A stretch of 24,000 nucleotides of DNA from Clostridiales bacterium. GTDB lineage: Bacteria > Bacillota > Clostridia > Christensenellales > Aristaeellaceae. The stretch lies in the NCBI GenBank assembly GCA_015056255.1, contig SVGP01000023.1, forward strand, positions 1 through 24,000, given 5' to 3'. Made by a program: the position numbers and the translations under genes. Under the pieces are notes generated by a model, which had not been told where the DNA came from, did not search any database, and saw only the letters and a program-made list of their open reading frames with translations. Every line of letters begins with the position of its first letter. The first letter of the stretch is position 1. Positions 10,197-23,874 of this stretch are shown here, one piece after another.

Positions 10197-10207
10197 AATC
10201 TTGTTTC

Positions 10208-10414
10208 CTACCTTTCCACAGTGATCACGCAGTCCGGGCACATGGTGGCGCAGAAAGCGCAGCCGATGCACTTTTCAGGTTCCGTGACCTTTGCCGGGTG
10301 ATGTCCCTGCTGGTTTAATTTCGTTTCGTCGAGCGCGACGATTTTCTTGGGGCATGCGCCCACGCAAAGGCCGCAGCCCTTGCATCTTTCCTCGCGGAAC
10401 GTTACTTTTGCCAT
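10208..10414 (-). CDS. 2-oxoacid:ferredoxin oxidoreductase, delta subunit (2x[4Fe-4S] ferredoxin)
   Basis: Two CxxCxxCxxxCP motifs: CKGCGLCVGACP and CIGCAFCATMCP. 68 aa. GGAGGAA ribosome-binding site. Confidence 0.9.
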   Translation of the reverse strand: MAKVTFREERCKGCGLCVGACPKKIVALDETKLNQQGHHPAKVTEPEKCIGCAFCATMCPDCVITVER

Positions 10415-10432
10415 TTATTTTTCCTCCGTTTA

Positions 10433-11101
10433 TCAATAGATCGCCCATTCGTCGCGGAAATGGAGCCGGATGGGCATGGGATGAACCACTTTGCCTTTGA
10501 TTTCGTTTATCAAATCCTCGCGGACGGTCGTGCCCAGAAGCGGAAGATTTGTTTTTTCGGAAACCTCTCTTGCAAGCGCGTCCGTTTCTGCGATATCCGA
10601 AACCGCAGTCATTTGTCCGAGATTGGAATTGTTGAGAAGGGCCGTAACTTTCATGCCGGAAGCGGTTTCCACTTCCCGAAGCACGCTGATCAATTGATCC
10701 GCCGTCCTCGTAAGCGGACGATAGAAGTTCATCACGAACACCATTTCGTAATCGTCCTCCGCCATTAAGGAAGGCGCGAGCCGTCCAAGCGCAAGCGCGC
10801 CTCTGTCGTCACCGCCAACGTCCACAACCGCGTGCGTTTGCTTGTCGTCGATGATCCTGTACATCTCTTCGGGCAGCGCGGGCACGTCCACATTGGTGTT
10901 TGCGTAGCTTGAAACCACGATTTCCACGCCCGCATCCTTCAGCGCCTTTTCGCTGTCTCTCGTTCTGAAATACGGGTTAACGATGTCAAGATCCGCTATC
11001 AGCGTTTTAAGGCCTTCTTTTTTGAGTCCCAGCGCGTAATTGACCGCGATATTGGTTTTGCCGCTTCCGTAGTGGCCTGAAAAAAGCGTTACTCTTTTCA
11101 C
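10433..11101 (-). CDS. P-loop NTPase of unknown function (MinD/ParA/CooC-like SIMIBI fold)
   Basis: The Walker A-like motif is FSGHYGSGKTNIAVNYA, followed by LIADLDIVNP and VVDVGGDDRG (Walker B-like). The GTG start abuts the ilvE stop (TAAGTG). No closer family is recognisable by eye. Confidence 0.7.
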   Translation of the reverse strand: MKRVTLFSGHYGSGKTNIAVNYALGLKKEGLKTLIADLDIVNPYFRTRDSEKALKDAGVEIVVSSYANTNVDVPALPEEMYRIIDDKQTHAVVDVGGDDRGALALGRLAPSLMAEDDYEMVFVMNFYRPLTRTADQLISVLREVETASGMKVTALLNNSNLGQMTAVSDIAETDALAREVSEKTNLPLLGTTVREDLINEIKGKVVHPMPIRLHFRDEWAIY

Positions 11102-12166
11102 TTATATTTTCTCCGTCCAGCCGAATGCGTCTTCCTTCTTGCCCCACTGGATGCCGGTGAGCTCGTCATACAGCTTCTGGGTGAGCTCGCCGATGTTCCC
11201 GCCGTTTACGACATAAGGAACGTCGTCCACGGACAATTCGCCGATGGGAGACACGACAGCCGCCGTTCCGCAGCCAAACGCCTCTTCAAGCGCGCCCGTT
11301 TTAACCGCCTCGGCCAATTCGTCCACGGAAAGGAGCCTTTCCTCTACCGGGACGCCCCACTTTTCAAGAAGCGCGATACAGCTTCTTCTGGTGATGCCGG
11401 GAAGAACGGATCCTGTGAGCTTCGGGGTAACGACGGTTCCGTTAATTTTGAACATGACGTTCATGGAGCCGACCTCTTCGACATATTTGCGCTCTACGCC
11501 GTCCAGCCACAGAACCTGGGCAAAGCCTTTCTTTTCGGCCTTTTCGCCGGCGCGCATGGAGGCTGCGTAGTTGCCGCCGCACTTGGCATAGCCGGTGCCG
11601 CCGCGAACCGCGCGAACGTCCTCGGTTTCGATCATAATACGGACGGGGTTTACGCCTTCCTTATAATAAGAACCGGAAGGCGAAAGAATGATGATGAAGG
11701 TGGCGTTGTTTACAGTGTGAACGCCCAGGAACGGGTCGTTTCCGAACAGGAAGGGGCGGATATAAAGGGACGCGCCTTCCGCGGAAGGAACCCAGTCGCG
11801 GTCGATATCGATCAGGGTTTTTAAAGCCTTTAAGCAGAATTCGCCGTCGATTCTGGGAAGGCAGAGGCGGTCGGCGGAATCGTTCATGCGGTCAAAGTTG
11901 TCCATGGGGCGGAACAGCTGAATTTCGCCGTCCGGACGGCGGTAGGCCTTCATGCCCTCGAAAATCTCCGCGCCGTAGTGAAGCACGGTAGACGCAGGCG
12001 AGATGGAAATGTTGCCGTAGGGAACGATTCTTGCGTCGTGCCAGCCGTTTTCGCGGTCAAACTCCATCACAAACATGTGATCAGTAAAAACTTTTCCAAA
12101 GCCCAGTTTGCTTGCGTCGGCGGGCTTTACTTTGGGATTCATATTTTTTTCAATACGGATTTCCAT
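11102..12166 (-). CDS. ilvE: Branched-chain amino acid aminotransferase (class IV PLP enzyme)
   Basis: LGFGKVFTDHMF, HYGAEIFEGMKAYR, GTGYAKCGGNYAAS, PGITRRS and GTAAVVSPIG blocks are typical of long-form IlvE. Confidence 0.93.
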   Translation of the reverse strand: MEIRIEKNMNPKVKPADASKLGFGKVFTDHMFVMEFDRENGWHDARIVPYGNISISPASTVLHYGAEIFEGMKAYRRPDGEIQLFRPMDNFDRMNDSADRLCLPRIDGEFCLKALKTLIDIDRDWVPSAEGASLYIRPFLFGNDPFLGVHTVNNATFIIILSPSGSYYKEGVNPVRIMIETEDVRAVRGGTGYAKCGGNYAASMRAGEKAEKKGFAQVLWLDGVERKYVEEVGSMNVMFKINGTVVTPKLTGSVLPGITRRSCIALLEKWGVPVEERLLSVDELAEAVKTGALEEAFGCGTAAVVSPIGELSVDDVPYVVNGGNIGELTQKLYDELTGIQWGKKEDAFGWTEKI

Positions 12167-12215
12167 TTGTCCATCCTCCGTTTTTTCTTTATTATACTAC
12201 ACTTATGTTATATCA

Positions 12216-14729
12216 TTATTGATTTGAAAGGCCAAATATTTCCGCAGCTTTTTCGCGCATCTTGTATTTTTGAATTTTGCCTGCGTCGTTCATGATGAAT
12301 TTGTCTACAAACCACACGTACTTGGGCACCTTGTGGCGAGCCATATTGGCGCGGACATAAGCCTTTACGTCCTCTTCCGTCATTTCCTCGCCCTCGCGGA
12401 CAATGACGCAGGCCATAATTTCTTCGCCGTACTGCTTATCGGGAACGCCGATGACCTGAACGTCGGAAATTTTGTCATGCGTAATTAGGAATTCCTCAAT
12501 CTCGCGCGGATAAATGTTTTCGCCGCCTCTGATGATCATGTCCTTGAGTCTGCCCGTCACGCGGTAGTTTCCGTCCTTGTCGCGGATGCAAAGGTCGCCG
12601 GTGTGCAGCCACCCTTCCCTGTCGATGGCTTCGTATGTTGCGGAGGGCATTTTGTAGTAGCCCTTCATGATGTTGTAGCCTCTGGCTACGAATTCGCCCT
12701 GCTCGCCGTCGGGCAGCTCCTTTCCGGTTGCGGGATCGATGATCCTGCATTCGATTTCGGGAAGCGCGCAGCCCACGGTCTGGGTGCGAACGTCCAGAGA
12801 ATCCTCATAGCATCTGCTCATCGTGCAGCCGGGCGCGGCCTCCGTCTGACCATAGACGGATACGATGCCGGTCATGTTCATGCGCTTGGCCGCTTCCCGC
12901 ATGACGCTTTCGGGGCAGTTTGCGCCGGCCATGATGCCGGTTCGCATGTGGGAAAAATCGGTCTTTTCAAAGTCCGGATGCGAAAGCATGGCGATAAACA
13001 TCGTGGGAACGCCATTAAAGCAGGTGATTTTTTCGCGGTTCACGCAGTCCAGCGCGGGCTTGGGCGAAAAGTACGGAAGCGGGCACATGGTGCTTCCGTG
13101 CGTCATGGACGCAGTCATGGAAAGTACCATGCCGAAGCAGTGGAACATGGGCACCTGGATCATCATGCGGTCAGCGGTGGAAAGATCCATTCGGTCGCCG
13201 ATGCATTTTCCGTTGTTGACAACTCCCCTGTGCGTGAGCATGACGCCCTTGGGAAAGCCGGTGGTGCCGGAGGTATACTGCATGTTGGCAACGTCGTCGC
13301 CCTTGATTTCGCTTGCGCGCCTGTATACTTCCTCCAGAGGAACCATGGGCGCACGGTCCATCATTTCATCAAACGTTAAGCATCCTTCCATTTTAAAGCC
13401 GACTGTAACGACGTTTCTTAAGAATGGAAGCCTTTGGGCGTGCAGTGGCTGGCCGGGCTCGGTGTGTTCAAGCTCCGGGCAAAGGCGTTTGATGGTGTCT
13501 ACATAGTTGGAATCGCGGAAGCCGTCCACCATGATAAGCGTGTGGGTATCGGACTGACGCAAAAGGTATTCCGCCTCGGCAATTTTGTAGGCGGTGTTCA
13601 TGGTGACGAGCGTCGCGCCGATTTTTGTAGTCGCCCAGAAGGCGATGTACCACGCGGGCACGTTGGTTGCCCACACGGTTACGTGGCTGTCTCGCTTGAC
13701 GCCCAGAGAAATGAGCGCACGGGCGCAGGCGTCCACATCGTCCCTAAACTGGGAATAGGTGCGCGTGTAGTCGAGGGTGGTGTATTTAAAGCACAATTGA
13801 TCCGGGAATTCCTTGACCATTCTGTCCAGCACCTGCGGGAAAGTCATGTCGATCAAGCTGTCGTGCTTCCAGACATATTTTCCGGTGCCCGCTTTATTGA
13901 GATACAATCCCTGCTCCCATGCGGGCGCGGGCTCAAAGTTTTTGACAAAGGAGGCAAAGTGCGCATACACTACGCCCGGGTCGTCCACTTCCTTAAGCCA
14001 CTCGGGATCCCATTCGAGGGAATAAAAGCCGTCGTAGCTGACGCTTCTTAACGCGCCGAAGATTTCCTTCATCGGAAGCGTGCCTTCGCCGAGCAGGCAG
14101 TATTCTGATTTTCCATCCTTAACGACCGAATCCTTCAGGTGCACATGCTTTACATATGCGCCGAGATTGGTGATCGTCTTTTCGGGCTTTTCGCCCATCA
14201 GGCGGTATGGATGGTGCACATCCCACAAAGCCGCCAGATGATCGCAGGCAAATTCATTTAAAATGCCGACCAGGCGCGAAGTATCGGCAAATATGCCGCA
14301 GGTTTCAATAAGCAAGGTAACGTCCGCCTTTTCAGCAAGCGGCAGAACTTTTTTAACCAGTTCCTTTACGTTTTCGTTTTCCTTTTCCTCGCCCTCGCCT
14401 GTTGAAAGCGCGCGCAGGCGTACAAAGGGAGCGTTTACCTTATCTGCAAAGGCGATGAGGTTTTTAATTTCCTCAGCTCTTTTGCCGTCTTCATCGTTTT
14501 CTGCGGGGTTCATGCGCGCATCAAGGCAGGTGATCGTGAGCCCCAGCGCTTTTAAGGATCGAACGGTGTGGTCGATTTCACCCTTTTGAAACGGCGCGCC
14601 AACGCCCGTAAACCGGCTTTCGCCGATATCGTGAATCTCGATGCCGTCAAGGCGCATTTCCCTTGCCACCGACACAAAATCGGCAAAGGAAAAGCTGTTC
14701 CAGCCGTAGGTGGATACGGAAAGCTTCAT
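12216..14729 (-). CDS. Fusion protein with an N-terminal xylose-isomerase-like TIM barrel (sugar phosphate isomerase/epimerase family) and a C-terminal AMP-forming acyl-CoA ligase
   Basis: Residues 1 to about 265 show TIM-barrel features (LDGIEIH, LLIETC, HLKD, SLEW). From about residue 290 the sequence is FadD-like, with YTSGTTGFPKGVMLTH (A3/P-loop), GQTE, WLHTGDL, RLKDMIIRGGENIYPREIE and a C-terminal GKIQK lysine motif. It overlaps the upstream gene by 4 nt (ATGA). Confidence 0.85.
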   Translation of the reverse strand: MKLSVSTYGWNSFSFADFVSVAREMRLDGIEIHDIGESRFTGVGAPFQKGEIDHTVRSLKALGLTITCLDARMNPAENDEDGKRAEEIKNLIAFADKVNAPFVRLRALSTGEGEEKENENVKELVKKVLPLAEKADVTLLIETCGIFADTSRLVGILNEFACDHLAALWDVHHPYRLMGEKPEKTITNLGAYVKHVHLKDSVVKDGKSEYCLLGEGTLPMKEIFGALRSVSYDGFYSLEWDPEWLKEVDDPGVVYAHFASFVKNFEPAPAWEQGLYLNKAGTGKYVWKHDSLIDMTFPQVLDRMVKEFPDQLCFKYTTLDYTRTYSQFRDDVDACARALISLGVKRDSHVTVWATNVPAWYIAFWATTKIGATLVTMNTAYKIAEAEYLLRQSDTHTLIMVDGFRDSNYVDTIKRLCPELEHTEPGQPLHAQRLPFLRNVVTVGFKMEGCLTFDEMMDRAPMVPLEEVYRRASEIKGDDVANMQYTSGTTGFPKGVMLTHRGVVNNGKCIGDRMDLSTADRMMIQVPMFHCFGMVLSMTASMTHGSTMCPLPYFSPKPALDCVNREKITCFNGVPTMFIAMLSHPDFEKTDFSHMRTGIMAGANCPESVMREAAKRMNMTGIVSVYGQTEAAPGCTMSRCYEDSLDVRTQTVGCALPEIECRIIDPATGKELPDGEQGEFVARGYNIMKGYYKMPSATYEAIDREGWLHTGDLCIRDKDGNYRVTGRLKDMIIRGGENIYPREIEEFLITHDKISDVQVIGVPDKQYGEEIMACVIVREGEEMTEEDVKAYVRANMARHKVPKYVWFVDKFIMNDAGKIQKYKMREKAAEIFGLSNQ

Positions 14730-16120
14730 ACATTGGCCTCCCTGTAAACGATCTTGTTAAGGGCGTTTAAGTACGCGCGGATGGACGCTCCGATAATATC
14801 TGTGGAAATGCCGCGCCCGGAATAGAGCTTGCCGCCGTCGCGCAGCTTTACCAGCGCTTCGCCCATGGCCTCGCGACCGCTGGTTACGGACTGAATTTCA
14901 AAATCGTCCAATTCGTAGTGGTGACCGACGACATTTTCAATCGCCATGAACGCCGCGTCGATCGGGCCATCGCCTGCGGAGAGACCCTGAACGGTCTCGC
15001 CCAGCTTATCAAGAACGATATGCGCGGTGGCGCTGATAATATTTCCGCTGTTGACCACGTAGCTTGAAAGCTTGTAGGTCGGGGGTACCTGAAGGGCGAC
15101 GGATGCGATGATCGCATCGAGCTCTCTTGCATCCACAGGCTTTTTGAGGGACATATTCTGAAACGCCTCAAACACCTTGGCAAGGTCTTCGCTGGAAAGA
15201 TCGTAGCCTAAGAGGGATGCGGCTCTTGCGACGGACGCGATGTCCGCGTTTTTATCGAGTTCCTTTTTGGGCTGCGCAGGAACGGCCAATTCTGCGCCGT
15301 TTAACGATTCCTTGGGCATGGCGCGGTCGAATCTTGCAATCAGGCTGACGGCTCGCTTCAGTGCAGTTTTGTCCACGTTGATCGCGGCTCCGACCTTTTC
15401 ACCCCTTGCGCTTAAGATATTGGTCATCTCTTCAAGGCCAGGCTGATCGCCAGAGGCGCAAACCGTGATCTGGTTGGCTCCGGCGCGGACTGCTTCAAAC
15501 GCGCAGGCGCAGGCCATGGAGATGGCGTTTCCGGTCTTTACGCCCACGTTTCTTTCGTGAAGCTCGGGAACGGATACATAAAGGCCCTTGATGAACGCGC
15601 CGAATTCGTCCGGCAGCATTTCGCCTGCGTCGTCCGAAACGGTGATCGTTTTTGCGCCTGCGTTCACTGCGGTTTCAACCGCTTTCGCAAGGAAGCTTTC
15701 CTCAGCGCGGGTAGCGTCAAGGGCGGTGAATTCAACATCCTCAATATAAGCCGCAGCGGTTTTTACCATCTGCTCAATCATTTCAAGCATGGCAGCCGGC
15801 TTCTTTTTATACATATACTCCATCTGAACGATGGAAACGGGCAGTTTTACGTTCAGGCGCGCTTTTTTTGCGTCCTTTACCGCATTGTAGGCCGCTTCCA
15901 CTTCTTCCATATTGAGAACCGGGCAGGAAACAATGCTGTTTACGGTCTGCTGCGCAACGGACTTGATCAGAATTTCATTGGCCTTTGCGCCTGCGATTGC
16001 GCTGGTTTCGATCACGTCCACATGAACGCCGTCCAAAATGCGCGCAGTTTCCAGCTTTTCTTTGAAGCTCATACCCTGTTTCGCCGAAAGCGTCGTTTCA
16101 ACAAGTCTGATGGTTTTCAT
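14726..16120 (-). CDS. 2-isopropylmalate synthase-like protein with degenerate catalytic motifs and an intact LeuA-type C-terminal regulatory domain
   Basis: The HMGL-like barrel aligns by eye to LeuA. DTTLRDGEQ is replaced by ETTLSAKQG, the metal-binding HxH(NDLG) by VKTGNAIS, and no HESGIH block is present. The C-terminus (GDGPIDAAFMAIENV...GRGISTDIIGASIRAYLNALNKI) is a good LeuA dimerisation/allosteric domain. Start set at the second ATG (16120), 8 nt after AAGGAG. Confidence 0.85.
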   Translation of the reverse strand: MKTIRLVETTLSAKQGMSFKEKLETARILDGVHVDVIETSAIAGAKANEILIKSVAQQTVNSIVSCPVLNMEEVEAAYNAVKDAKKARLNVKLPVSIVQMEYMYKKKPAAMLEMIEQMVKTAAAYIEDVEFTALDATRAEESFLAKAVETAVNAGAKTITVSDDAGEMLPDEFGAFIKGLYVSVPELHERNVGVKTGNAISMACACAFEAVRAGANQITVCASGDQPGLEEMTNILSARGEKVGAAINVDKTALKRAVSLIARFDRAMPKESLNGAELAVPAQPKKELDKNADIASVARAASLLGYDLSSEDLAKVFEAFQNMSLKKPVDARELDAIIASVALQVPPTYKLSSYVVNSGNIISATAHIVLDKLGETVQGLSAGDGPIDAAFMAIENVVGHHYELDDFEIQSVTSGREAMGEALVKLRDGGKLYSGRGISTDIIGASIRAYLNALNKIVYREANV

Positions 16121-16162
16121 ATTCATATCTCCTTTGGCTCAATATGCGCTTGAATCAATGTT

Positions 16163-16461
16163 TTTCAAAAAAACACGCCCCGGAAACACCTGTTTCCGGG
16201 GCGACAATTTTATTATCGCGGTACCACCCGAATTGATTGCCGAAAAAGCAACCCTCTCATTTAAGGTTCCAATAAACCCTGCGCCAAGATAACGGGGCGA
16301 ACCGTGACGCCTTACTGAAGAAGTTTTTGAAATTCTCCGTTCAGGCATCCTGCTCGAGAAGGAGATGATTCCAATCACTCTGCGCCGCCTCGCACCAAAC
16401 ACGGCTCTCTTCAGCAGGTTGGAAAGGAACCTGGTTCCGTCATAGCATTTGATTTTGCAAT
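16163..16461 (-). promoter_or_regulatory. T-box riboswitch leader 1 (inferred specifier CUC, Leu) with terminator/antiterminator
   Basis: The minus-strand RNA has a K-turn (UGCUAUGAC GGAA ... UUCU CGAGCA), an AG bulge (AGAGAG) and a distal loop (UUUGGUGCGA). The T-box sequence AAUUCGGGUGGUACCGCG lies at 16234-16217. The antiterminator CGGG[UGGUACC]GCGA...UCGC-CCCG competes with the terminator GCCCCGGAAACA-GG-UGUUUCCGGGGC plus a U7 run (16203-16163). The codon at the canonical position is CUC (16364-16362). Confidence 0.88.
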
Positions 16462-16554: not shown

Positions 16555-18876
16555 TTAGAGCTTGTTTCTCTGAATCTTGCCGCTTGTGGTCTTGGGCAAT
16601 TCATCACGGAAGACGACAATGCGCGGATATTTATAAGGCGCGGTCTTCTTCTTGACGTAATTCTGGATTTCCTTTTTAAGTTCCTCCGTAGGCTCCGTTC
16701 CCTTGGTAAGGACGATGCTCGCCTTGACCACCTGACCGCGGATTTCATCCGGCGCAGCGGATACGCCGCACTCAATAACATAGGGAAGCTCCATAATGAC
16801 GGATTCGATTTCAAACGGCCCGATTCGGTAACCGGAGGACTTGATCACGTCGTCCACGCGGCCCACATACCAGAAGTAGCCGTCTTCGTCCATCCACGCG
16901 GTATCGCCCGTGTGGTACATGCCATCGGAAACATCCAGAACCGGCTTTTTGAGCGTATTATCGTAGTATCCGCGCGTAAGGCCGCAGGGCAGGCCGTCTT
17001 CCACATGGATGACGATTTCGCCCGTTTCGCCGACGCCCACGCTCTTGCCCTCCGGATTTACAATGTCCACATCGTACAGCGGCACGGGTTTTCCCATGGA
17101 ACCGACCTTGGGCGTCATGCCGACGGTGTTTCCGATCATCATAGTGGTTTCCGACTGGCCGAAGCCCTCCATGAGGGATAAGCCCGTGGCCTTCTTGAAC
17201 TGGTGGAACACCTCGGGGTTCAGGGCCTCGCCCGCGATGGTCGCATGCTTGATGGAGGAAAGATCGAACTTCGAAAGATCCTCCTTGATCATGAAGCGAT
17301 ACATGGTGGGCGGCGCGCAGAAGGTGGTGATGTTGTATTTTTTGAACATCGGAAGGATATCGTTGGCGTCGAAGCGATCAAAGTCGTATACGAAAATCGC
17401 GCCTTCGCTCAGCCACTGACCGTAGAGCTTGCCCCACATGCTCTTGGCCCAGCCGGTGTCGGAAATGGTGTAGTGAAGGCCGTTGGGGTCGACGGTATGC
17501 CAGTAGTGGGCGGTAATGAAGTGGCCCAGCGGGTAGGTATATGTGTGGGATGCGATCTTGGGATAGCCGGTTGTTCCGCTGGTAAAGAACATGAGCATAA
17601 GGTCCTCGCCCTCGGGGCGTTTTTCGCCTTCCGGCACGGTGAGGGTAGATCTGAACATGCGGTATTCCGTGTCAAAGCTTCTCCAGCCATCGCGTTCGCC
17701 CTCAACCACGATGCGGTTACCAACAAACGGACACTCCTCAAGCGCAAGCTCCGCCTGATTGATGCAGTCGCCGACGCCGGTCACGATGACGGTGGAGACG
17801 CCGGCGGCAGTAAATCTGTAGGAAAGATCCTTTTTCAGAAGCTGGTTGGGTGCGAGGATTGCGATTGCGCCGATTTTCTGAAGCGCCATCATGATGATCC
17901 AGAACTGATAATGACGGCGGAGCATCAGAAGCACCTTGTCGCCCTTTTTGACGCCGATGGATCTGAAGTAGTTGGCGGCGCGGTTGGAAAGGCGCGAAAT
18001 ATCGGCAAAGGTGAAGCGGTTTTCCACGCCGTCGCGCGAAATGTGCATCATGGCCAGCTTTTCAGGGTTGTTCTTACCCAGCTCGTCCACAATGTCAAAG
18101 GCAAAGTTGAACTTTTCAGGATTTTTGAAGGAAATGGCTTTCAAAGAGCCATCGGGATTTTCAACCGCGTCCACCCACTTCGACCAGATGTGCTCGCCCT
18201 CGGGCGCAGTATGCACGGGCGCGGGCGCAATTTCGACCTTGGGAAGGGTCATCATGGGCTCTTTGACGGTGAGCTCCGGAATCGCATCGCCCGACGGATT
18301 TAAAACAATCGCGTAAAACAGGCAGTTTTCGCCGCCCACCGCGATCATGCCGTGGGGCTTGGAGGAGTCGTAATAGATGCTGTCGCCGGGGCCCAGAATC
18401 TCCCAGTGCGTTCCGACCTGCACCTTGAGCTTACCGGAAATAACGATATCGCATTCCTGGCCCTCGTGGCTGGTCAGTTCAATGTCCTGATACTGCGCCT
18501 CCTCGGAATAGGCGGCGTTTACGTACAAAGGCTCAGCGATTCGGTTTTTGAACTGCGCAGCGAGGTTATAGTACACCATGCCGTGCGCCTGCTCTATCCT
18601 CTGCCCCATGCCGTTTCTGGTTACGGTGTAGCCGGAAAGACGGGGGCTCGCGCCCTCGATAATATCGGTAACGTCAACATTCAAAACCAGCGCGCAGCGG
18701 TAAATAAAGGCGAAGTTCAGATCCGCCTTGCCCGCCTCGCAAAGTCTGTATTCCTCAATCGTAACGCCCGTCTTTTTGGCCATGCTCTCTTCGGAAATAC
18801 CCTCGATTTCACGAAGCTCCTTAATACGGCCTGCCATCTCCTGAAGCTTGAATTCCAGACCCGTCGTCTGATTCAT
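16555..18876 (-). CDS. HTH(XRE)-cupin-acyl-CoA synthetase fusion (AMP-forming, medium/short-chain ACS-like), paralog A
   Basis: Residues 12-72 form a Cro/C1-type HTH (RIKELREIEGISEESMAKKTGVTIEEYRLCEAGK). Residues around 105-195 form a cupin (SHEGQECDIVISGKLKVQVG...GDSIYYDSSKPHG). The remainder is an AMP-binding enzyme (FTSGTTGYPKIASHT, GFGQSETT, YHTGDTA, DDVIKSSGYRIGPFEIES, SGKIQRN). Start at ATG 18876, with AAAGGGGG 9 nt upstream. Confidence 0.9.
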   Translation of the reverse strand: MNQTTGLEFKLQEMAGRIKELREIEGISEESMAKKTGVTIEEYRLCEAGKADLNFAFIYRCALVLNVDVTDIIEGASPRLSGYTVTRNGMGQRIEQAHGMVYYNLAAQFKNRIAEPLYVNAAYSEEAQYQDIELTSHEGQECDIVISGKLKVQVGTHWEILGPGDSIYYDSSKPHGMIAVGGENCLFYAIVLNPSGDAIPELTVKEPMMTLPKVEIAPAPVHTAPEGEHIWSKWVDAVENPDGSLKAISFKNPEKFNFAFDIVDELGKNNPEKLAMMHISRDGVENRFTFADISRLSNRAANYFRSIGVKKGDKVLLMLRRHYQFWIIMMALQKIGAIAILAPNQLLKKDLSYRFTAAGVSTVIVTGVGDCINQAELALEECPFVGNRIVVEGERDGWRSFDTEYRMFRSTLTVPEGEKRPEGEDLMLMFFTSGTTGYPKIASHTYTYPLGHFITAHYWHTVDPNGLHYTISDTGWAKSMWGKLYGQWLSEGAIFVYDFDRFDANDILPMFKKYNITTFCAPPTMYRFMIKEDLSKFDLSSIKHATIAGEALNPEVFHQFKKATGLSLMEGFGQSETTMMIGNTVGMTPKVGSMGKPVPLYDVDIVNPEGKSVGVGETGEIVIHVEDGLPCGLTRGYYDNTLKKPVLDVSDGMYHTGDTAWMDEDGYFWYVGRVDDVIKSSGYRIGPFEIESVIMELPYVIECGVSAAPDEIRGQVVKASIVLTKGTEPTEELKKEIQNYVKKKTAPYKYPRIVVFRDELPKTTSGKIQRNKL

Positions 18877-18895: not shown

Positions 18896-19192
18896 GTCAA
18901 AAAAATCCGCCTCAAAGAAACATATCGTCTTTGAGGCGAATGAAAAAATCTTTCACACGCGGTACCACTCAAATTCACGCATTTTGAAAATGCGCCTCAC
19001 GGCTCCATCAAGCCGTTCTCCCTTTTCGCAGGCTCACGGGAGGCTCTACTGATTTCGGTCACCCGAAACGTTCTGCCGTCCGGCTCGGAAGCGACAAATT
19101 CTGCCTTCTCGTTACCGGCTCGCACCAAGCGCCGGCTCTCTGAAACGATTTTCCGTCAGAATCCTCTTCGTCATCGCCAATGATATGAAATT
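18896..19192 (-). promoter_or_regulatory. T-box riboswitch leader 2 (inferred specifier GUC, Val)
   Basis: The minus-strand RNA has a K-turn (GGCGAUGAC GAAG ... CUUC CGAGCC) and an AG bulge plus distal loop (AGAGAGCCGGCGCUUGGUGCGAGCCGG). The T-box sequence AAUUUGAGUGGUACCGCG lies at 18975-18958. The antiterminator is UUGAG[UGGUACC]GCG...CGC-CUCAA. The terminator is CGCCUCAAAGA, 9 nt, UCUUUGAGGCG, then GAUUUUUUU (18938-18896). The codon at the canonical position is GUC (19095-19093), followed by G. Confidence 0.88.
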
Positions 19193-19198
19193 AGAGAT

Positions 19199-19227
19199 AT
19201 GATACCACGAAGGGCGGAATCTGTCAA
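19199..19227 (-). promoter_or_regulatory. Sigma-A promoter of T-box unit 2
   Basis: TTGACA (19227-19222), a 17-nt spacer ending in TGG, then TATCAT (19204-19199), preceded by a T-rich UP-like tract. Confidence 0.7.
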
Positions 19228-19304: not shown

Positions 19305-19327
19305 AAAAATATAAGGAGGCGATGTGC

Positions 19328-19594
19328 ATGCCAGAACTAAGCAGGTTTGCCGGAATCATTGTCAAAATGATTTTCAACGATACCGTTCAACATAATAAAC
19401 CCCACGTTCACGTATATTACGGTGAATATCAGGCCTCCATCGGCATTGATGGCGAATTATTGGCAGGTTCACTGCCTGTAAAGCAGCTAAAAATGGTTGT
19501 TGGATGGCTGGCACTTCACGAAGAAGAGGCCTATGCTGCATGGAATAAGGCTGTACGCGGCGAACGCTTCGACAAGATCAAACCCCTGATTTAA
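19328..19594 (+). CDS. DUF4160-family small protein
   Basis: MPELSRFAGIIVKMIFND..HNKPHVHVYYGEYQASIGIDGELLAGSLP matches the DUF4160 pattern (MP.ISRF.GI.I.MY..DH.PPHFH). Start taken at ATG 19328, 8 nt after AAGGAGG. Confidence 0.8.
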   Translation: MPELSRFAGIIVKMIFNDTVQHNKPHVHVYYGEYQASIGIDGELLAGSLPVKQLKMVVGWLALHEEEAYAAWNKAVRGERFDKIKPLI

Positions 19595-19605
19595 GGAGAT
19601 ATGCT

Positions 19606-19890
19606 ATGTATATTATTGACGGAATCGCATATGCATCCCAAAAAATGCAGGAAACATTCGTAACGGCAGTTAAACCGCTTGACGATATGATGATGATCGT
19701 CACATTCGGATCCGGCGAAAAACGATTGTATGACGCCTCTCAACTTCTCGATTTCCCAGCATTTCAACCCCTTAAAGATGAAACTGTTTTCATGAATGCA
19801 AAGGTGGAATATGGCGTCGTCACATGGGCGGACGGTGAAATCGACATTGCGCCGGAAACCATGTACGAAAACAGCTACGAATATCAATAA
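19606..19890 (+). CDS. DUF2442-family small protein
   Basis: The pattern (V.PLDD..L.V.F..GE.R..D...LLD.P.F.PL.D...F..V.V..G.V.W..GEIDIAPE.LYE) is typical of DUF2442. AAGGAG lies 7 nt upstream. The start is 11 nt after the DUF4160 stop. Confidence 0.8.
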   Translation: MYIIDGIAYASQKMQETFVTAVKPLDDMMMIVTFGSGEKRLYDASQLLDFPAFQPLKDETVFMNAKVEYGVVTWADGEIDIAPETMYENSYEYQ

Positions 19891-19902
19891 AGAATATATC
19901 AA

Positions 19903-19940
19903 GGCAGCGCACGGCCTGTGCGCTGCCTGACTTTTCTATT
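19903..19940 (+). terminator. Intrinsic terminator after the DUF2442 gene
   Basis: GGCAGCGCAC, a 5-nt loop, GTGCGCTGCC, then TGACTTTTCTATTT. It may also serve the convergent minus-strand gene. Confidence 0.7.
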
Positions 19941-19984
19941 TGCAAGAATTGTAATTACGGAAGATTCCTCTATATTTTTCTCCC

Positions 19985-20995
19985 TCATTCCCCAAAGAAC
20001 ACTCTGGGCGTATTGATGATACAAAATGCAATAACATCCTTATAGCGTTTGGTTTTCCCTGTTTCCAATGATACACAGTATGCATCCGCGCCGTATAAGG
20101 CGCGCATCCTAAAATAAACAAGTTCCTTTCCGGCTTTCGATACGGCGATACCCGTTTCCGGCTCCAGCAAGGACAAAGTAATCGTTTTCCCTTTTCTTGT
20201 CTTATAGTCTTCAATTGTATTTTCCTGAACGGAATACATTTTGAGAACTCCGTCTTTGTCAATAAACAAAAGCGTATCGTCATTCAGCCATGCGGGCGCT
20301 TCCCCTTCGCCGATATCTCTGACATTTCCGTCTGAATCGATTATAACAATCCTGTCAGGCAGGATAATATACGGGAATGCAAAGGAATCCTTGGTTTCAT
20401 CAAGGATTGTTTCGTAATAGCTGAATGCAATCCTGCCGCTTGACGAAACCGTATTTGAAGTCGTGTAAGTGTATCCGCGATTATCCGCCGGCGAAACAGC
20501 CCCATTTAACATCGCCCATTCCGGCGGGCAAAAACACATCTGGTAATCAACATGCGGATAAACGAATGTATCTCCGTTTTTGTTTAAGCGAACATACTCG
20601 CAGCAATATTCCTTGTTTTCCGCCAATCGGCAATAGTAGTAATCATCTCCATGCGCCGCAAATACATGCAGAAGGTTCGGATCCTTTATGATGCAGTCCG
20701 TTTGGATGTTTCCGTCTTCATGGACAGTGAGGATTTCCGTTTCACCGATCTCAATATGTTCACGCGCAGCACGCACACCCACTTCTTCAGTAAAGCCCTC
20801 AATCAGATAAAAATCCGCAGGACATACATCCTCGGCATGCTTTTTCGAAAGATCCTGTTTTCTGAACAACTGCGGATGATCGTCATCATCATACTCCACA
20901 AAGAAAACAGTACCGGATATCCCTGACGCAGCACACGCAGGGAACATTGAAGTAAAAATCACCATGATCAAAAGCAGGCAGAATTTCTTTTTCAT
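19985..20995 (-). CDS. Secreted Cys-rich hypothetical protein
   Basis: Signal peptide MKKKFCLLLIMVIFTSMFPACA with an A-x-A cleavage site. GGAGGAA ribosome-binding site. The C-terminal half has beta-propeller-like repeats (IIDSDGNVRDIG, LFIDKDGVLKMY). No recognisable enzyme motifs. Confidence 0.7.
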   Translation of the reverse strand: MKKKFCLLLIMVIFTSMFPACAASGISGTVFFVEYDDDDHPQLFRKQDLSKKHAEDVCPADFYLIEGFTEEVGVRAAREHIEIGETEILTVHEDGNIQTDCIIKDPNLLHVFAAHGDDYYYCRLAENKEYCCEYVRLNKNGDTFVYPHVDYQMCFCPPEWAMLNGAVSPADNRGYTYTTSNTVSSSGRIAFSYYETILDETKDSFAFPYIILPDRIVIIDSDGNVRDIGEGEAPAWLNDDTLLFIDKDGVLKMYSVQENTIEDYKTRKGKTITLSLLEPETGIAVSKAGKELVYFRMRALYGADAYCVSLETGKTKRYKDVIAFCIINTPRVFFGE

Positions 20996-21113: not shown

Positions 21114-23390
21114 TTACAGAAGATTCCTCTGGATCTTTCCGCTGATGGTTTTGGGAAGCTCATCCTTGAAGACGACGATTCTCGGATACTTGTAGGGCGC
21201 GGTTTTGTGCTTTACGTATTCCTGAATTTCCTTTTTGAGTTCCTCGGTGGGTTCGGTGCCCTTGGTTAAGACGATGCTCGCCTTGACCACCTGGCCGCGG
21301 ATCTCGTCGGGGGCTGCGGAAACGCCGCACTCGAGGACGTAGGGAAGCTCCATGATGACGGATTCGATTTCAAACGGCCCAATGCGGTAGCCGGAGGACT
21401 TGATCAGATCGTCCACGCGGCCTACATACCAGAAGTAGCCGTCTTCGTCCTTCCATGCGGTATCGCCGGTGTGGTACATGCCGTCCGAAAGGTCGATTTC
21501 AGGAACGCCCTTTTCGTTGTTGTAATAGCCGAGAGTAAGACCCATCGGGGGCTTGCCGTCCTTAAGGCGCACGACGATTTCGCCGGTTTCGCCCTGCTGG
21601 ACGCTGTTGCCGTCGTGATCGACGATGTCGATGTCGTAATTGGGAACGGGCTTGCCCATGGAGCCGACCTTCGGGCGCATACCGACGAGATTGGCGATGG
21701 TAAGGGTGGTTTCGGTCTGACCGAAGCCTTCCATAAGGGAGATGCCCGTGGCTTTTCTGAACTGATAGAAGACCTCGGGGTTCAAAGCTTCGCCTGCGAT
21801 GGTGGCATGCTCAATGGAAGAAAGATCGTATTTGGAAAGATCTTCCTTGATCATGAAGCGATACATGGTGGGCGGCGCGCAGAAGGTTGTGATGTGATAC
21901 TTTTTGAACATCGGCAGAATGACAGAGGCGTCGAAGCGGTCAAAGTCGTATACGAACGTCGCCGCCTCGCACATCCACTGGCCGTAAAGCTTGCCCCACA
22001 GCGCCTTGCCCCAGCCGGTGTCGGAGATAGTGAAGTGAAGGCCATCTGGGTTGACGTTGTGCCAATATTTGGCGGTAGCAAAATGCGCAAGCACGTATTT
22101 ACAGGAGTGAGTTGCGATCTTGGGATAGCCCGTCGTTCCGCTTGTAAAGAGCATGAGCATGGGATCGTCGCCCTTGATGGAATCCTCCGTTCTCGGGAAG
22201 GTGGAGGAGAACATGCGGGCTTCGGTGTCAAAGTCGCGCCAGCCCTCGCGAACGCCGTCGACGATGATTCTGTGTTTTAAAGTCGGGCTGTCCTTAAGCG
22301 CCTTGTCTACTTCTTCTGCAACCTTTCCCGTGCCCGTACAGATGATAGCGGAAACGCCGGCGGCATTGAAGCGGTAGGTAAGGTCGTGTTCGACCAGAAG
22401 GTTGGTTGCGGGGATGACGATTGCACCCAGCTTATGAAGCGCAAGAATGGCCTGCCAGAACTGATAATGGCGGCGCAGAATCAGCATGACTCTGTCGCCC
22501 TTTTTGATGCCGAGGGATTTAAAATAGTTGGCAACGCGGGAGGAAGAGCGGGAAAGCTCGCGGAAAGTGAACTTTCTTTCCTCCATATTGCGGCTTACGT
22601 GAACCATTGCAACCTTATCGGGCTTCTTTTCGGCGATGGCGTCCACGATATCGAAGGCAAAGTTGAACTCGTCCGCGTTTTTGTATTTGATCTCCTTGAC
22701 AAGGCCGTTTTCGTCCTCAACGCCCTCGACGAATTTTTCATAAATTCTGCCCTCAGTGCGCTTGGCGGCGACGATGGTGTCCCTGATTTCGAGCTCCTCC
22801 GTCTCCTCGCCCGGCAGTACCACCGCGCAGAAATAGCAGTCCTGACCTTCCACCGCGATCATGCCGTGGGGCGTTGAGGAGTCGTAATAGATGCTGTCGC
22901 CTTCATGCAGGATCTCGGTATGCTCGCCCACCTGCACCTTCAGTGCGCCGGACATGATCAGGTCAAATTCCTGACCGCTGTGGCGGGTCAGATGGATGGG
23001 GCTTTTCTGCTGCTCGGGCGAATATTCGTATTTTACAAAATAAGGCTCGGCAATCTTCTTTTTGAAAAGCGGCGCAAGGGACCTGATTTCAAGGCCTACT
23101 TCGCGCGCGGTAACCGTGCCCTGGCCTTTTCTGGTAACGGTGTACTGGGTCAGGCGCGCGGATTTACCTTCCATAAGGTCGGTGATTTCAACGCCCAGTT
23201 CCAGCGCGCATTTGTGGATGAAGCTGAAGGGGAAGTCCAGCTGGCCGTCCTCGTACTGCACATACATTTCGAGGCTCACTTCCGTGCGCTCGGCCATTTC
23301 CTCCCTTGAAAAACCAGCGATTTCACGCAGCTCACGAATTCGGGCCGCCACCTCGAAGATTTTATTGGTCGCGTTGTTTGTCGCCTGCAT
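21114..23390 (-). CDS. HTH(XRE)-cupin-acyl-CoA synthetase fusion, paralog B
   Basis: Same three-domain layout as 16555-18876: RIRELREIAGFSREEMAERTEVSLEMYVQYEDGQ, then RHSGQEFDLIMSGALKVQVG...GDSIYYDSSTPHG, then FTSGTTGYPKIATHS...SGKIQRN. The C-terminal 90 aa are nearly identical to paralog A. Start at ATG 23390, with GGAGGG upstream. Confidence 0.9.
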   Translation of the reverse strand: MQATNNATNKIFEVAARIRELREIAGFSREEMAERTEVSLEMYVQYEDGQLDFPFSFIHKCALELGVEITDLMEGKSARLTQYTVTRKGQGTVTAREVGLEIRSLAPLFKKKIAEPYFVKYEYSPEQQKSPIHLTRHSGQEFDLIMSGALKVQVGEHTEILHEGDSIYYDSSTPHGMIAVEGQDCYFCAVVLPGEETEELEIRDTIVAAKRTEGRIYEKFVEGVEDENGLVKEIKYKNADEFNFAFDIVDAIAEKKPDKVAMVHVSRNMEERKFTFRELSRSSSRVANYFKSLGIKKGDRVMLILRRHYQFWQAILALHKLGAIVIPATNLLVEHDLTYRFNAAGVSAIICTGTGKVAEEVDKALKDSPTLKHRIIVDGVREGWRDFDTEARMFSSTFPRTEDSIKGDDPMLMLFTSGTTGYPKIATHSCKYVLAHFATAKYWHNVNPDGLHFTISDTGWGKALWGKLYGQWMCEAATFVYDFDRFDASVILPMFKKYHITTFCAPPTMYRFMIKEDLSKYDLSSIEHATIAGEALNPEVFYQFRKATGISLMEGFGQTETTLTIANLVGMRPKVGSMGKPVPNYDIDIVDHDGNSVQQGETGEIVVRLKDGKPPMGLTLGYYNNEKGVPEIDLSDGMYHTGDTAWKDEDGYFWYVGRVDDLIKSSGYRIGPFEIESVIMELPYVLECGVSAAPDEIRGQVVKASIVLTKGTEPTEELKKEIQEYVKHKTAPYKYPRIVVFKDELPKTISGKIQRNLL

Positions 23391-23417: not shown

Positions 23418-23707
23418 GAAAATAAAAAAACGCCCCAAAGAAACCACTGTTTCTTTGAGACGAAAATCACTTTATAGATTTCCGCGGTACCACTCAAATT
23501 GCGTTTGTCAAAAACGCCCCTTAACAGGCTCCATCAAGCCCTGCGCCTGTAACGCTGCGCCAGCGGGAAGAGACTACTGGAAAAATTTCATCCTTCCGGC
23601 TCGGGAGTGATGGGCACATTGACCATATGCTTTCGCCGGCTTTCACCAAGCGCCGGCTCTCTGTGGAAATGCATTTTGATCTGCCGTCTCCGTCATTGCT
23701 TTTCTTG
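23418..23707 (-). promoter_or_regulatory. T-box riboswitch leader 3 (inferred specifier AUC, Ile)
   Basis: The minus-strand RNA has a K-turn (AGCAAUGAC GGAG ... CUCC CGAGCC) and an AG bulge plus distal loop (AGAGAGCCGGCGCUUGGUGAAAGCCGGCG). The T-box sequence AAUUUGAGUGGUACCGCG lies at 23500-23483. The terminator is CGUCUCAAAGAAAC, 4 nt, GUUUCUUUGGGGCG, then a U7 run (23462-23418). The codon at the canonical position is AUC (23611-23609), followed by A. Confidence 0.88.
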
Positions 23708-23713: not shown

Positions 23714-23742
23714 ATATTACCACCGATCGCCACGTTTGTCAA
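23714..23742 (-). promoter_or_regulatory. Sigma-A promoter of T-box unit 3
   Basis: TTGACA (23742-23737), a 17-nt spacer ending in TGG, then TAATAT (23719-23714), with an A/T-rich UP-like tract upstream. Confidence 0.7.
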
Positions 23743-23874
23743 TTCCTTTTTTCAAAAAAATCTGAATTTTTCATATTTCAATTATGCATAAAAATTTACA
23801 CACTTTTATTCCCCCAAGTGCGCACGGGCGGTAAAAAACGTGTATAATACCCATATTCTCAAAGGAGTGAGACC

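Follow-up and report, generated by a model that had tools for sequence, protein, structure and literature searches.

Among trigger enzymes, those that carry their own DNA-binding domain include BirA, PutA, and NadR, and the concept itself is said to go back to Commichau and Stulke. BirA combines a helix-turn-helix (HTH) with a biotin-adenylate-forming ligase, and the adenylate that it makes serves as its co-repressor. Control of AMP-forming ligases by lysine acetylation is also known. Among T-boxes upstream of branched-chain amino acid (BCAA) genes, that of the Bacillus subtilis ilv-leu operon carries a CUC leucine specifier. Isobutyrate, 2-methylbutyrate, and isovalerate, the branched acids related to these amino acids, are abundant metabolites of the gut and rumen, and many fiber-degrading Clostridia require them for growth.

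XRE-cupin transcription factors, such as Escherichia coli PuuR and Pseudomonas PauR, PsdR, and ErfA, have been studied as stand-alone proteins, and all characterized members are DNA-binding repressors of neighboring genes (PMC7901475). The acyl-CoA synthetase MacsMa of Methanosarcina acetivorans (MA4008) prefers 2-methylbutyrate (PMC10455477), and carboxylation of isovalerate to leucine has been documented in rumen microbes (PMC7356843). Which genes convert branched acids back to valine, isoleucine, and leucine, and how these genes are controlled, is poorly defined, and the locus described here offers a concrete and widely conserved set. It lies within a window of 24,000 nucleotides from an uncultured gut Clostridia bacterium, the whole stretch of DNA that was analyzed, to which all positions below refer.

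Organization of the locus, T-box leaders, and ligases

Two neighboring genes on the minus strand, fusA (positions 21114 to 23390, with an ATG at 23390 and the ribosome-binding site AAAGGAGGG) and fusB (16555 to 18876), encode HTH-cupin-acyl-CoA synthetases of 758 and 773 amino acids (aa), respectively. They stand at the head of a conserved cluster containing an aminotransferase and a 2-oxoacid:ferredoxin oxidoreductase. Using Pfam, the downstream pathway genes (7843 to 16126, minus strand) were found to encode a LeuA-like synthase, a TIM-barrel-ACS fusion, a class IV (branched-chain) aminotransferase, a P-loop CbiA/ParA-like protein, and the alpha, beta, and gamma subunits of the oxidoreductase. 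This set of genes comes after the fusA/fusB pair in many species, and the cluster with the class IV aminotransferase and POR/VOR subunits is conserved in approximately 25 species loci.

Separate sigma-70-type promoters and T-box leaders, all on the minus strand, precede the two genes. For fusA, the promoter (23714 to 23742) reads TTGACA-17-TAATAT with a TG preceding the -10 box, and the leader (23453 to 23705) matches Rfam family RF00230 at 102.2 bits, where the gathering score is 93; its terminator hairpin lies at 23431 to 23462. The fusB promoter (19199 to 19227) reads TTGACA-17-TATCAT, and its leader (18929 to 19183) matches RF00230 at 75.4 bits (E value of 1e-15), which is under the gathering score of 93; the specifier GUC, the T-box sequence AGTGGTACCGCG, and a terminator are all present. 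A third T-box leader (16194 to 16452; 101.8 bits) heads the downstream operon. The first-pass annotation had placed a riboswitch above both paralogs; an RNA leader is indeed there, but it is a T-box rather than a metabolite riboswitch. Specifier codons were read from Stem I geometry as AUC (Ile, followed by A) for fusA, GUC (Val, followed by G) for fusB, and CUC (Leu) for the third leader. Across the approximately 30 species compared, AUC is the conserved codon ahead of fusA orthologues at most loci, and GUA or GUC (Val) is kept ahead of fusB orthologues; the LeuA-like operon is likewise preceded by CUC across species. Comparably strong promoters also occur upstream of the leader in the orthologous loci. 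The Ile, Val, and Leu T-boxes thus give explicit amino acid assignments to the gene set.

The ligase part of fusA is 49% identical to MacsMa (PDB 3ETC) over the whole ligase (E value of 3e-184), and residues K256, W259, and C298 of the MacsMa alternate acyl pocket are conserved in this alignment; fusB has the corresponding pocket motifs GWAKSMWGK and TTFCAPP. The catalytic lysine motif, previously noted as intact, was found in the two paralogs as PKTISGKIQRN and PKTTSGKIQRN, together with the other ANL core motifs TSGTTGYPK, GFGQTET, YHTGD, and GRVDDLIKSSGYRIGPFEIES. With no ANL motif missing, the A10 lysine included, and with the acyl-pocket residues of MacsMa in place, both ligases are predicted to be catalytically competent. 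The best NCBIfam match was MbcS (NF047394), with 443 and 426 bits, so far below the equivalog cutoff of 850 that the fusion ligases are not MbcS orthologues. They are very probably paralogous short branched-chain-acid:CoA ligases of the MacsMa/MbcS type that form an ATP-consuming, T-box-gated entry to BCAA synthesis from branched acids.

The gene context, with its aminotransferase and 2-oxoacid:ferredoxin oxidoreductase, is consistent with BCAAs being made from branched short-chain acids. We infer a route in which a branched acid would be converted to its acyl-CoA, reductively carboxylated by the 2-oxoacid:ferredoxin oxidoreductase, and transaminated to the BCAA. On this route fusA, with its Ile-tRNA-sensing leader, would probably take 2-methylbutyrate toward isoleucine, and fusB, with its Val-tRNA-sensing leader, would probably take isobutyrate toward valine.

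Architecture, distribution, and divergence of the N-terminal module

An HTH, a cupin, and a full AMP-forming synthetase were found in the same order in fusA and fusB by Pfam profile search, as the first-pass annotation had proposed; the segments that it singled out, 22791 to 23390 (minus strand) and 18292 to 18876, correspond to residues 1 to 200 of fusA and to the N terminus of fusB. In fusA, the matches were HTH_19 at residues 16 to 76 (39.4 bits; cutoff, 30.2), Cupin_2 at 122 to 189 (44.5 bits), AMP-binding (PF00501) at 251 to 623 (236 bits), and AMP-binding_C (PF13193) at 674 to 752 (74.8 bits), the last three scoring 46.8, 198, and 77.1 bits in fusB. The fusB HTH falls slightly below the curated cutoffs (22.9 versus 23.0 for HTH_3 and 22.9 versus 30.2 for HTH_19) and aligns with the fusA HTH residue for residue.

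The HTH-cupin fold was borne out by structure prediction, as the AlphaFold2 model of the fusA N terminus (pLDDT of 87) has five helices within residues 2 to 74 (2 to 25, 29 to 35, 40 to 47, 55 to 65, and 69 to 74) followed by a beta-barrel (83 to 192). The whole module (residues 13 to 193) can be aligned to the XRE-cupin structure 1Y9Q, and it also aligns to SinR and the 434 repressor. From these data the XRE-type five-helix HTH was assigned to residues 10 to 75 (23166 to 23363, minus strand), and the cupin beta-barrel, for which invariant columns and Foldseek matches were also used, to residues 83 to 193 (22812 to 23144, minus strand). The corresponding fusB domains, placed by Pfam and by alignment to fusA, lie at approximately 18649 to 18846 (HTH) and 18292 to 18627 (cupin), also on the minus strand. 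In the cupin, H137, E141, and H175 are conserved, the motifs HxGQEFD and GDSIYYxSxxPHGM are present, and these three residues are invariant or almost so from Clostridia to Bacteroidota.

A linker of about 40 residues had been suggested between module and ligase, but the unstructured, variable part amounts to only about 20 residues (195 to 212/215). The segment assigned to it (residues 194 to 215; 22746 to 22811, minus strand) has a pLDDT below 50 across residues 195 to 212, is variable in length, and shows only 29 to 41% identity within clades. The synthetase fold already begins at residues 216 to 234 or thereabouts, and the 3ETC alignment assigns residues 216 to 758 (21117 to 22745, minus strand) to the MACS-type AMP-forming acyl-CoA synthetase. 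The full-length AlphaFold2 model, in which the ACS C-domain has low confidence, is usable for domain boundaries.

A survey of how widespread the fusion is, called for in the first-pass annotation, showed that all 40 Clostridia MAG species loci found carry the HTH-cupin-ligase. Given a contig of sufficient length, it always forms one uninterrupted reading frame; 33 of the 40 genes end at their own stop codon (approximately 750 to 800 aa), and the remaining seven run off the contig. More than 100 independent full-length homologues, at 70 to 99% identity, were also identified, and with the 40 Clostridia loci these rule out an assembly artifact or frameshift as the source of the fusion. Sequence look-up found no record of the exact window protein, the closest entries being P0121 (99%) and a goat-caecum MAG, RGIG1906 (87%), and one close homologue is indexed in 238 blocks of a public assembly collection. 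No description of such an architecture was found in the literature, whether of the HTH-cupin-ligase fusion, the Bacteroides gene pair, or the T-box, VOR, and branched-acid links, and the terms "cupin" and "helix-turn-helix" are absent from the 2026 MbcS paper. The fusion is real and widespread, and it is unstudied.

In Bacteroidota, the module is a stand-alone HTH-cupin gene next to a ligase gene in 61 of the 66 evaluable loci, with the ligase starting 7 to 242 nt (mostly 7 to 40 nt) downstream on the same strand. These pairs are located in arginine/proline clusters; thus, a BCAA is not necessarily the ligand that is sensed.

Within the two paralog clades, the N-terminal module is as conserved as the catalytic domain (identities of 0.60/0.72 for the HTH, 0.72/0.76 for the cupin, and 0.70/0.75 for the ACS N-domain), which bears out the earlier suggestion of a second regulatory layer. 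Between paralogs, the ligase domains have identities of 0.67 and 0.88, compared with 0.47 for the HTH and 0.53 for the cupin. Differences that are fixed between the paralogs number 5 to 6 per 100 aa in the module, and the corresponding figure for the ACS N-domain is 0.7. At the level of sequence, divergence between the Ile and Val paralogs is concentrated in the N-terminal sensor module. Its retention in all Clostridia loci, its within-clade identity, and its linkage in Bacteroidota argue for a functional module with a firm tie to the ligase.

DNA contact and alternative roles of the module

The first-pass annotation had raised the possibility of a DNA-binding trigger enzyme; the domain order and the RNA leader stand, whereas DNA binding is disfavored by an acidic HTH, altered contact positions, and the lack of a shared operator. 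The net charge of the HTH is -9 in fusA and -5 in fusB (family means of -6.2, -6.0, and -5.0), compared with +1 to +3 for the DNA-binding XRE domains of PuuR, SinR, the 434 repressor, and 9K3W and +2 for the uncharacterized XRE-cupin structure 1Y9Q. Helix 3 reads V(S/T)xE(E/D)YxxYExG in the fusion family versus LTHSAISTIEQDK in PuuR; the equivalents of Q28 and Q33 of the 434 repressor are variable, that of Q29 is Glu, and the canonical "ERG" has lost its Arg. By charge and helix composition, which are indirect indicators, the HTH surface and recognition helix lack the polar or basic character expected for DNA contact. There are acidic XRE proteins that bind DNA. The HTH-like domain of HppE, on the other hand, does not, and HppE, with Psf4, HEPD, and MPnS of the same fold, shows that the HTH-cupin architecture can function without DNA binding.

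No operator shared by 46 orthologous promoters from approximately 30 species was found by by-eye alignment or by enumeration of dyads (4- to 6-bp arms and 0- to 14-bp spacers, compared with dinucleotide shuffles). The sole recurrent dyad was a T5-N1-3-A5 tract upstream of the -35 box, which is UP-element-like. The best inverted repeat per promoter averaged 6.59, against 6.22 ± 0.15 in shuffles (approximately 2.4 standard deviations, which is marginal), and neither position nor sequence was shared. Approximately one-quarter of the promoters have a species-specific inverted repeat across the -10 box, for example, TTAAATTTAAT-N3-ATTAAATTAAA at L010 and L039; such repeats might be operators that evolve quickly, in step with the variable residues of the recognition helix. 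Upstream of the stand-alone Bacteroidota genes, an operator search yielded the Bacteroidetes -7 promoter box and terminators belonging to the gene before. Beyond these, there was a single 7/8 inverted repeat, which was seen within a set of near-identical loci and is uninformative.

Among the three options of the first-pass annotation, allosteric gating through the cupin appears to fit the evidence better, and DNA-binding autoregulation fits it less well. We tentatively favor, at slightly below even confidence, a paralog-specific ligand sensor that gates the ligase over a DNA-binding autoregulator. The module would have descended from an XRE-cupin regulator tied genetically to the ligase since before the Bacteroidota-Clostridia split, as a separate upstream gene or as a fusion. 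We infer that its cupin may recognize a pathway-specific ligand, which could be the end product (Ile or Val) or else the corresponding acid or its acyl-CoA, and that the ligand-bound cupin may activate or shut off the ligase to which it is tethered. The HTH would have a role in structure, dimerization, or docking rather than in reading specific DNA sequences. Fast posttranslational control would in this way be added to slow T-box control; otherwise, the ligase would drain ATP and CoA. In a broader form, which is possible but somewhat doubtful, the module would be a transcription factor fold that now serves only to regulate MACS-type synthetases, as a separate cotranslated partner protein in Bacteroidota and as a fused domain in gut Clostridia, with Ile- or Val-specific gating of branched-acid assimilation arising after duplication on top of the T-boxes. 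Several points count against gating: the flexible, poorly conserved linker of variable length is what would be expected of two independently working modules; the characterized XRE-cupin proteins are all repressors, and by sequence the module is nearer to their family than to HppE; the charge and helix indicators are indirect; the repeats across some -10 boxes may be operators; and the arginine/proline context in Bacteroidota allows for a ligand other than a BCAA.

The linker and the family precedent speak for a true trigger enzyme, in which an N-terminal XRE-cupin dimer binds an operator and represses its own promoter, and perhaps others of the cluster, until the precursor acid occupies the cupin or, as in BirA, the ligase makes acyl-AMP. 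Combined with the T-box, this would yield an AND gate that permits expression only when a shortage of the amino acid coincides with a supply of the acid. By its HTH_19/HTH_3 and Cupin_2 matches and its alignment to 1Y9Q, the module belongs to the XRE-cupin family, whose characterized members all act locally by occluding the neighboring promoter (PMC7901475), and local regulators are typically linked to their targets as tightly as the two genes are in Bacteroidota. The HTH is also under purifying selection with paralog-specific fixed residues (Y46C, P54N, H59Y, and K60R), and the inverted repeats across some -10 boxes would suit an operator. This reading is nonetheless unlikely, given an acidic HTH with Glu or variable residues at canonical DNA-contact positions, the absence of a shared operator or consistently placed dyad in the 46 promoters, amino-acid-specific T-boxes that already control transcription, and the occurrence of the fold in non-DNA-binding enzymes.

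That occurrence raises a further alternative, in which His137-Glu141-His175 binds a metal and the cupin is a second, HppE/Psf4-like enzyme acting on the substrate or product of the ligase rather than a sensor. Foldseek and a profile search placed HppE, Psf4, HEPD, and MPnS among the best structural relatives of the whole two-domain module, the Foldseek E values for these enzymes and 1Y9Q being 1e-13 to 1e-9, and the triad is nearly invariant across both phyla. However, the bona fide repressor PuuR has the same H-x3-E...PH pattern; the triad does not discriminate enzyme from regulator and was dropped for this purpose. Acid activation, carboxylation, and transamination need no additional chemical step, and the sequence similarity of the module to HppE is marginal (E value of 0.03, cupin part only); a catalytic cupin is very improbable. 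An evolutionary relic, in which loss of a stop codon joined a local regulator to its target and left an N-terminal module that is now unimportant, would be easily reached, since the 7- to 40-nt gaps common in Bacteroidota put fusion one mutation away. It is extremely improbable because of the conservation data: the module is kept in 40 of 40 Clostridia species loci, at full length where the contig allows, and in both paralogs; within clades it is as conserved as the catalytic domain, and it has clade-specific fixed residues.

Whichever reading holds, an unstudied regulatory module is attached to a ligase family across two phyla, whether fused to it or encoded next to it. DNA binding by the module would make a new trigger enzyme that forms an AND gate with the T-box; gating of the enzyme would mean that a transcription factor fold has given rise to ligase regulation of a new class. 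As a dedicated regulatory domain, it would be a previously unrecognized control of AMP-forming ligases alongside lysine acetylation.

Comparison with known systems

The N-terminal module shares with PuuR, PauR, PsdR, and ErfA the five-helix HTH and a Cupin_2 domain with the H-x3-E...PH pattern, as well as genetic linkage to a metabolic gene that would be the expected target (PMC7901475). It differs in being fused to a 540-aa enzyme or, in Bacteroidota, in being the obligate upstream partner gene, and fusA and fusB accordingly exceed the stand-alone size of that family (approximately 180 to 200 aa) by a C-terminal ligase. Compared with PuuR, the fusion HTH is strongly acidic and without polar or basic recognition-helix residues, and no palindromic operator was found in the 46 promoters.

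BirA, PutA, and NadR likewise combine an HTH and an enzyme on one polypeptide, and BirA, like fusA and fusB, is an adenylate-forming ligase. In fusA and fusB, by contrast, putative DNA binding is disfavored by sequence, there is an extra cupin sensor domain, and a T-box layer is already present. The phosphonate-metabolizing Fe(II) enzymes HppE, Psf4, HEPD, and MPnS resemble the module in having an HTH-like alpha domain and a cupin, but they are stand-alone oxygenases with only 16 to 18% identity to it, and such chemistry is improbable in fusA and fusB.

MacsMa and Staphylococcus aureus MbcS are short- or medium-branched-chain acyl-CoA synthetases, of which MacsMa has all ANL core motifs in common with fusA. 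Unlike fusA and fusB, they lack an N-terminal regulatory module, and the role of fusA and fusB is probably in amino acid synthesis as opposed to fatty acid priming. Finally, the leaders resemble those of T-box-controlled BCAA genes such as B. subtilis ilv-leu in attenuation by uncharged tRNA and in amino-acid-specific specifier codons. The T-box targets here are acid-activating ligases and a reductive-carboxylation route, whereas those of the B. subtilis type belong to the classical acetolactate pathway.

Fused ligases and their T-box leaders

The two paralogous genes fusA (21114-23390, minus strand) and fusB (16555-18876, minus strand) encode proteins of 758 and 773 aa, and a good ribosome-binding site and ATG were found for both at the starts assigned by the first-pass annotation. 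Using Pfam, an identical domain order was identified in both proteins: an XRE-type helix-turn-helix (HTH; HTH_19/HTH_3), Cupin_2, AMP-binding, and AMP-binding_C. The HTH of fusA passed the curated cutoff, while that of fusB fell marginally under it (22.9 versus 23.0 bits) and aligned with the fusA HTH column for column. The XRE-cupin crystal structure 1Y9Q aligned over residues 13 to 193, which is the entire N-terminal module, and AlphaFold2 predicted five helices at 2 to 74, a short low-confidence connector, a beta-barrel at 83 to 192, a low-confidence linker at 195 to 212, and the ligase thereafter. Both proteins carry the complete set of ANL core motifs, including the C-terminal SGKIQRN lysine, which had been noted as intact. 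The proposed HTH-cupin N terminus on a complete ligase was thus borne out, with a linker of approximately 20 residues rather than the 40 previously estimated.

The RNA element earlier termed a riboswitch is a T-box leader. Three such leaders, each with a near-consensus sigma-70 promoter in front of it and a terminator at its end, are present on the minus strand, and their specifiers were taken from Stem I geometry: AUC-A (Ile) for fusA (23453-23705; 102 bits), GUC-G (Val) for fusB (18929-19183; 75 bits, E = 1e-15), and CUC-C (Leu) for the next operon (16194-16452; 102 bits). The C following the Leu specifier is atypical, as a purine is usual at this position and the other Leu leaders read have G or A. 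When the T-boxes of homologous loci were read by a fixed rule, AUC preceded fusA orthologs in approximately 28 loci, GUA or GUC preceded fusB orthologs in approximately 22, and CUC preceded the LeuA-like operon in 6 loci as well as in the window, an assignment kept across approximately 30 species. Thus, the paralogs are Ile-responsive and Val-responsive ligases, and this assignment is conserved.

By Pfam, the downstream genes encode a LeuA-like synthase, a TIM-barrel-ligase fusion, and an aminotransferase of class IV (branched-chain type), together with a P-loop protein and three subunits (alpha, beta, and gamma) of a 2-oxoacid:ferredoxin oxidoreductase. Judged from sequence, these are the enzymes required to convert a branched short-chain acid to its acyl-CoA, carboxylate it reductively to the 2-oxoacid, and transaminate the latter to the amino acid. 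This route, associated with Allison and colleagues, is reportedly long established in rumen bacteria and methanogens. Branched-acid carboxylation is also mentioned in PMC7356843.

The TIM-barrel-ligase (12216-14729, minus strand; 837 aa) represents a second type of ligase fusion, in which a xylose-isomerase-like barrel (AP_endonuc_2, residues 21 to 242) precedes a complete AMP-binding ligase. Its gene lies directly 3' of the LeuA-like synthase gene under the control of the Leu (CUC) T-box, and the pair recurs in homologous loci L020, L022, L023, L039, and L117-L119; the fusion may serve the isovalerate/Leu branch or a new activity. The P-loop protein (10433-11101, minus strand; 222 aa; CbiA/ParA/NUBPL-like) is always encoded between the ligase and oxidoreductase genes (window, L003-L039, and L117-L119), followed in L117-L119 by a 68-aa ferredoxin gene, and may deliver Fe-S clusters to the oxidoreductase. 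An insertion at 19322-20995, missing in relatives, where the gap is approximately 370 nt, separates fusA from fusB and contains paired DUF4160 (19322-19594) and DUF2442 (19606-19890) genes on the plus strand and a minus-strand ORF of 336 aa (19985-20995) that matched no Pfam family.

Distribution and the unfused form

Using the N-terminal 245 aa as a query against one genome per GTDB species, 42 loci were identified, 40 of which were from uncultured gut or rumen Clostridia (Acutalibacteraceae, Oscillospiraceae/Ruminococcaceae, Christensenellaceae, and Lachnospiraceae). The fusion is in a single frame in all 40 as far as the contigs reach, with its own stop at approximately 750 to 800 aa in 33 and a contig end interrupting the remaining 7. 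The top match, from a goat-caecum MAG, shares 87% protein identity. The gene order fusA-fusB-P-loop-oxidoreductase-aminotransferase, in some cases followed by the LeuA-like gene, was found again in approximately 25 of the loci and, in a prevalent relative that had 238 indexed blocks in the public assembly collection, on three long contigs. The survey of its spread proposed by the first-pass annotation also returned hundreds of fused homologs in protein searches, named only "AMP-binding protein," "cupin domain-containing protein," or "acetyl-CoA synthetase." At 50% clustering, the module formed 84 clusters at E values up to 1e-30 and 561 at up to 1e-10, mixing stand-alone proteins of approximately 185 aa with fusions of approximately 760 aa. 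One protein, P0377 (1,002 aa), matches the HTH portion of the query at ten separate places, an apparent tandem XRE-type HTH array.

The other two loci, from Bacteroidales, are unfused: a 185-aa HTH-cupin gene is separated by 13 nt from a ligase gene whose product shares 46% identity with the fusA ligase, and the pair sits inside an arginine/proline biosynthesis cluster. A metagenome scan with the stand-alone Bacteroidales protein gave 73 loci (31 to 77% identity), 66 of which had enough downstream sequence. In 61 of these, a few being fusions themselves, a ligase ortholog begins on the same strand 7 to 242 nt (mostly 7 to 40 nt) 3' of the HTH-cupin. This linkage, with the Clostridia fusions, indicates that module and ligase family are an old, tightly coupled pair that became fused in Clostridia, and the fusion is older than the fusA/fusB duplication, as each paralog has a module version of its own. 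Coupling does not extend to the whole of the wider family, as three Firmicutes stand-alone relatives (L103, L106, and L108; 42% identity to the Prevotella protein), located between a Mur-ligase gene and rsmE, have no adjoining ligase. In three Bacteroidota loci (L051, L053, and L054), a ligase paralog lies on either side of the HTH-cupin gene. One Bacteroidales group (L066-L078; e.g., L069 at approximately 5880-6000) has a conserved GC-rich leader with a hairpin, TTTACCGCGGAC..GCCGCTGTGGTTAGGGCGGC..GGATTTACCC, in the stretch from a Bacteroidetes-type promoter to the start codon of the stand-alone gene; this leader could be an unannotated cis-regulatory RNA.

Function of the N-terminal module

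Within the two clades, the module is conserved to the same degree as the ligase N-domain (identities of 0.60/0.72 for the HTH, 0.72/0.76 for the cupin, and 0.70/0.75 for the ligase N-domain). When the Ile clade was compared with the Val clade, identity was 0.47 for the HTH and 0.53 for the cupin, and it fell only to 0.67 and 0.88 in the domains of the ligase. In the HTH and cupin, clade-specific fixed differences numbered 5 to 6 per 100 aa (Y46C, P54N, H59Y, K60R, E97A, I102Y, Y117L, and others), compared with 0.7 per 100 aa in the ligase N-domain (G461A, L464M, and L563M). Ile/Val specialization thus resides chiefly in the module and the T-box specifier and not in the catalytic domain, as would be expected of a module that senses a pathway-specific signal. 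Our preferred, though tentative, reading is that it is a paralog-specific ligand sensor gating the ligase. It is very improbable that the cupin is catalytic, and slightly more so that the module is an inert relic.

The principal alternative, that the module is a DNA-binding autoregulator making the protein a trigger enzyme and, together with the T-box, an AND gate, is possible but rather doubtful. By sequence the module groups with XRE-cupin regulators, its HTH is under purifying selection, and the linker is flexible; all characterized XRE-cupin members are dimeric repressors that occlude a neighboring promoter until a pathway metabolite releases them (PMC7901475). However, the HTH is unusually acidic, with a net charge of -9 in fusA and -5 in fusB (clade means, -6.2 and -6.0; stand-alone mean, -5.0), compared with +1 to +3 in the DNA-binding PuuR, SinR, 434 repressor, and a PbsX-family protein and +2 in the uncharacterized 1Y9Q. 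Helix 3, V(S/T)xE(E/D)YxxYExG, is also atypical at base-contacting positions. When it was aligned to the 434 repressor via the conserved E-x-G, the equivalents of Q28 and Q33 were the most variable positions of the domain, the Q29 position was mostly Glu, and the usual "ERG" lacked its Arg, whereas PuuR carries SQRR and LTHSAISTIEQDK at equivalent positions.

A dyad search for an operator common to 46 promoters of fusA and fusB orthologs found none. The sole recurrent dyad, a T5-N1-3-A5 tract (e.g., TTTTTTTGAAAAAA) exceeding shuffles (15 versus a maximum of 11 for 4-mers), lies directly 5' of the -35 box in about one-third of promoters (window, approximately 23745-23775, minus strand) and was read as an UP element. 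Inverted repeats per promoter were marginally enriched (6.59 versus 6.22 ± 0.15) with no common position, about one-quarter overlapping the -10 box. The fold is likewise found in Fe(II) enzymes, as HppE, Psf4, HEPD, and MPnS accompanied 1Y9Q among the best whole-module Foldseek matches; the role of the HTH-like domain in the four enzymes is structural, and the XRE-type HTH of RodZ binds protein, not DNA. Together, charge, helix 3, promoters, and fold make sequence-specific DNA reading the less likely function of the HTH, short of proof.

Proposed mechanism and known systems

The ligase is 49% identical (E = 3e-184) to MacsMa of Methanosarcina acetivorans (PDB 3ETC), which prefers 2-methylbutyrate (PMC10455477), and retains Lys256, Trp259, and Cys298 of the unusual MacsMa acyl pocket. 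The top NCBIfam model was MbcS, the Staphylococcus aureus branched-chain acyl-CoA synthetase, at 443 bits; as this is far under the equivalog cutoff of 850, the ligase is a relative and not an ortholog of MbcS.

In the proposed mechanism, sequence and comparison show a first step in which uncharged tRNA-Ile or tRNA-Val stabilizes the cognate T-box antiterminator and the ligase is made. Homology and synteny suggest that the ligase would then activate 2-methylbutyrate or isobutyrate as input to reductive carboxylation and then transamination. In each paralog, the cupin may bind a pathway-specific small molecule, candidates being the end-product amino acid (feedback), the acid, or the acyl-CoA, and ligase activity would be switched via the tethered module, guarding the pools of ATP and CoA on time scales beyond the reach of the T-box. 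With this locus, the genetics of assimilating branched-chain acids are defined for abundant gut Clostridia that are uncultured.

A literature search for the HTH-cupin-ligase architecture found no paper describing it. Taken singly, the XRE-cupin module, the MACS-type ligase, and the T-box are of known kinds; as far as the searched literature shows, their combination, comprising a cross-phylum obligate module-ligase pairing, a fusion in Clostridia, and an Ile/Val duplication, is undescribed, and either DNA binding or enzyme gating by the module would be new for AMP-forming ligases.
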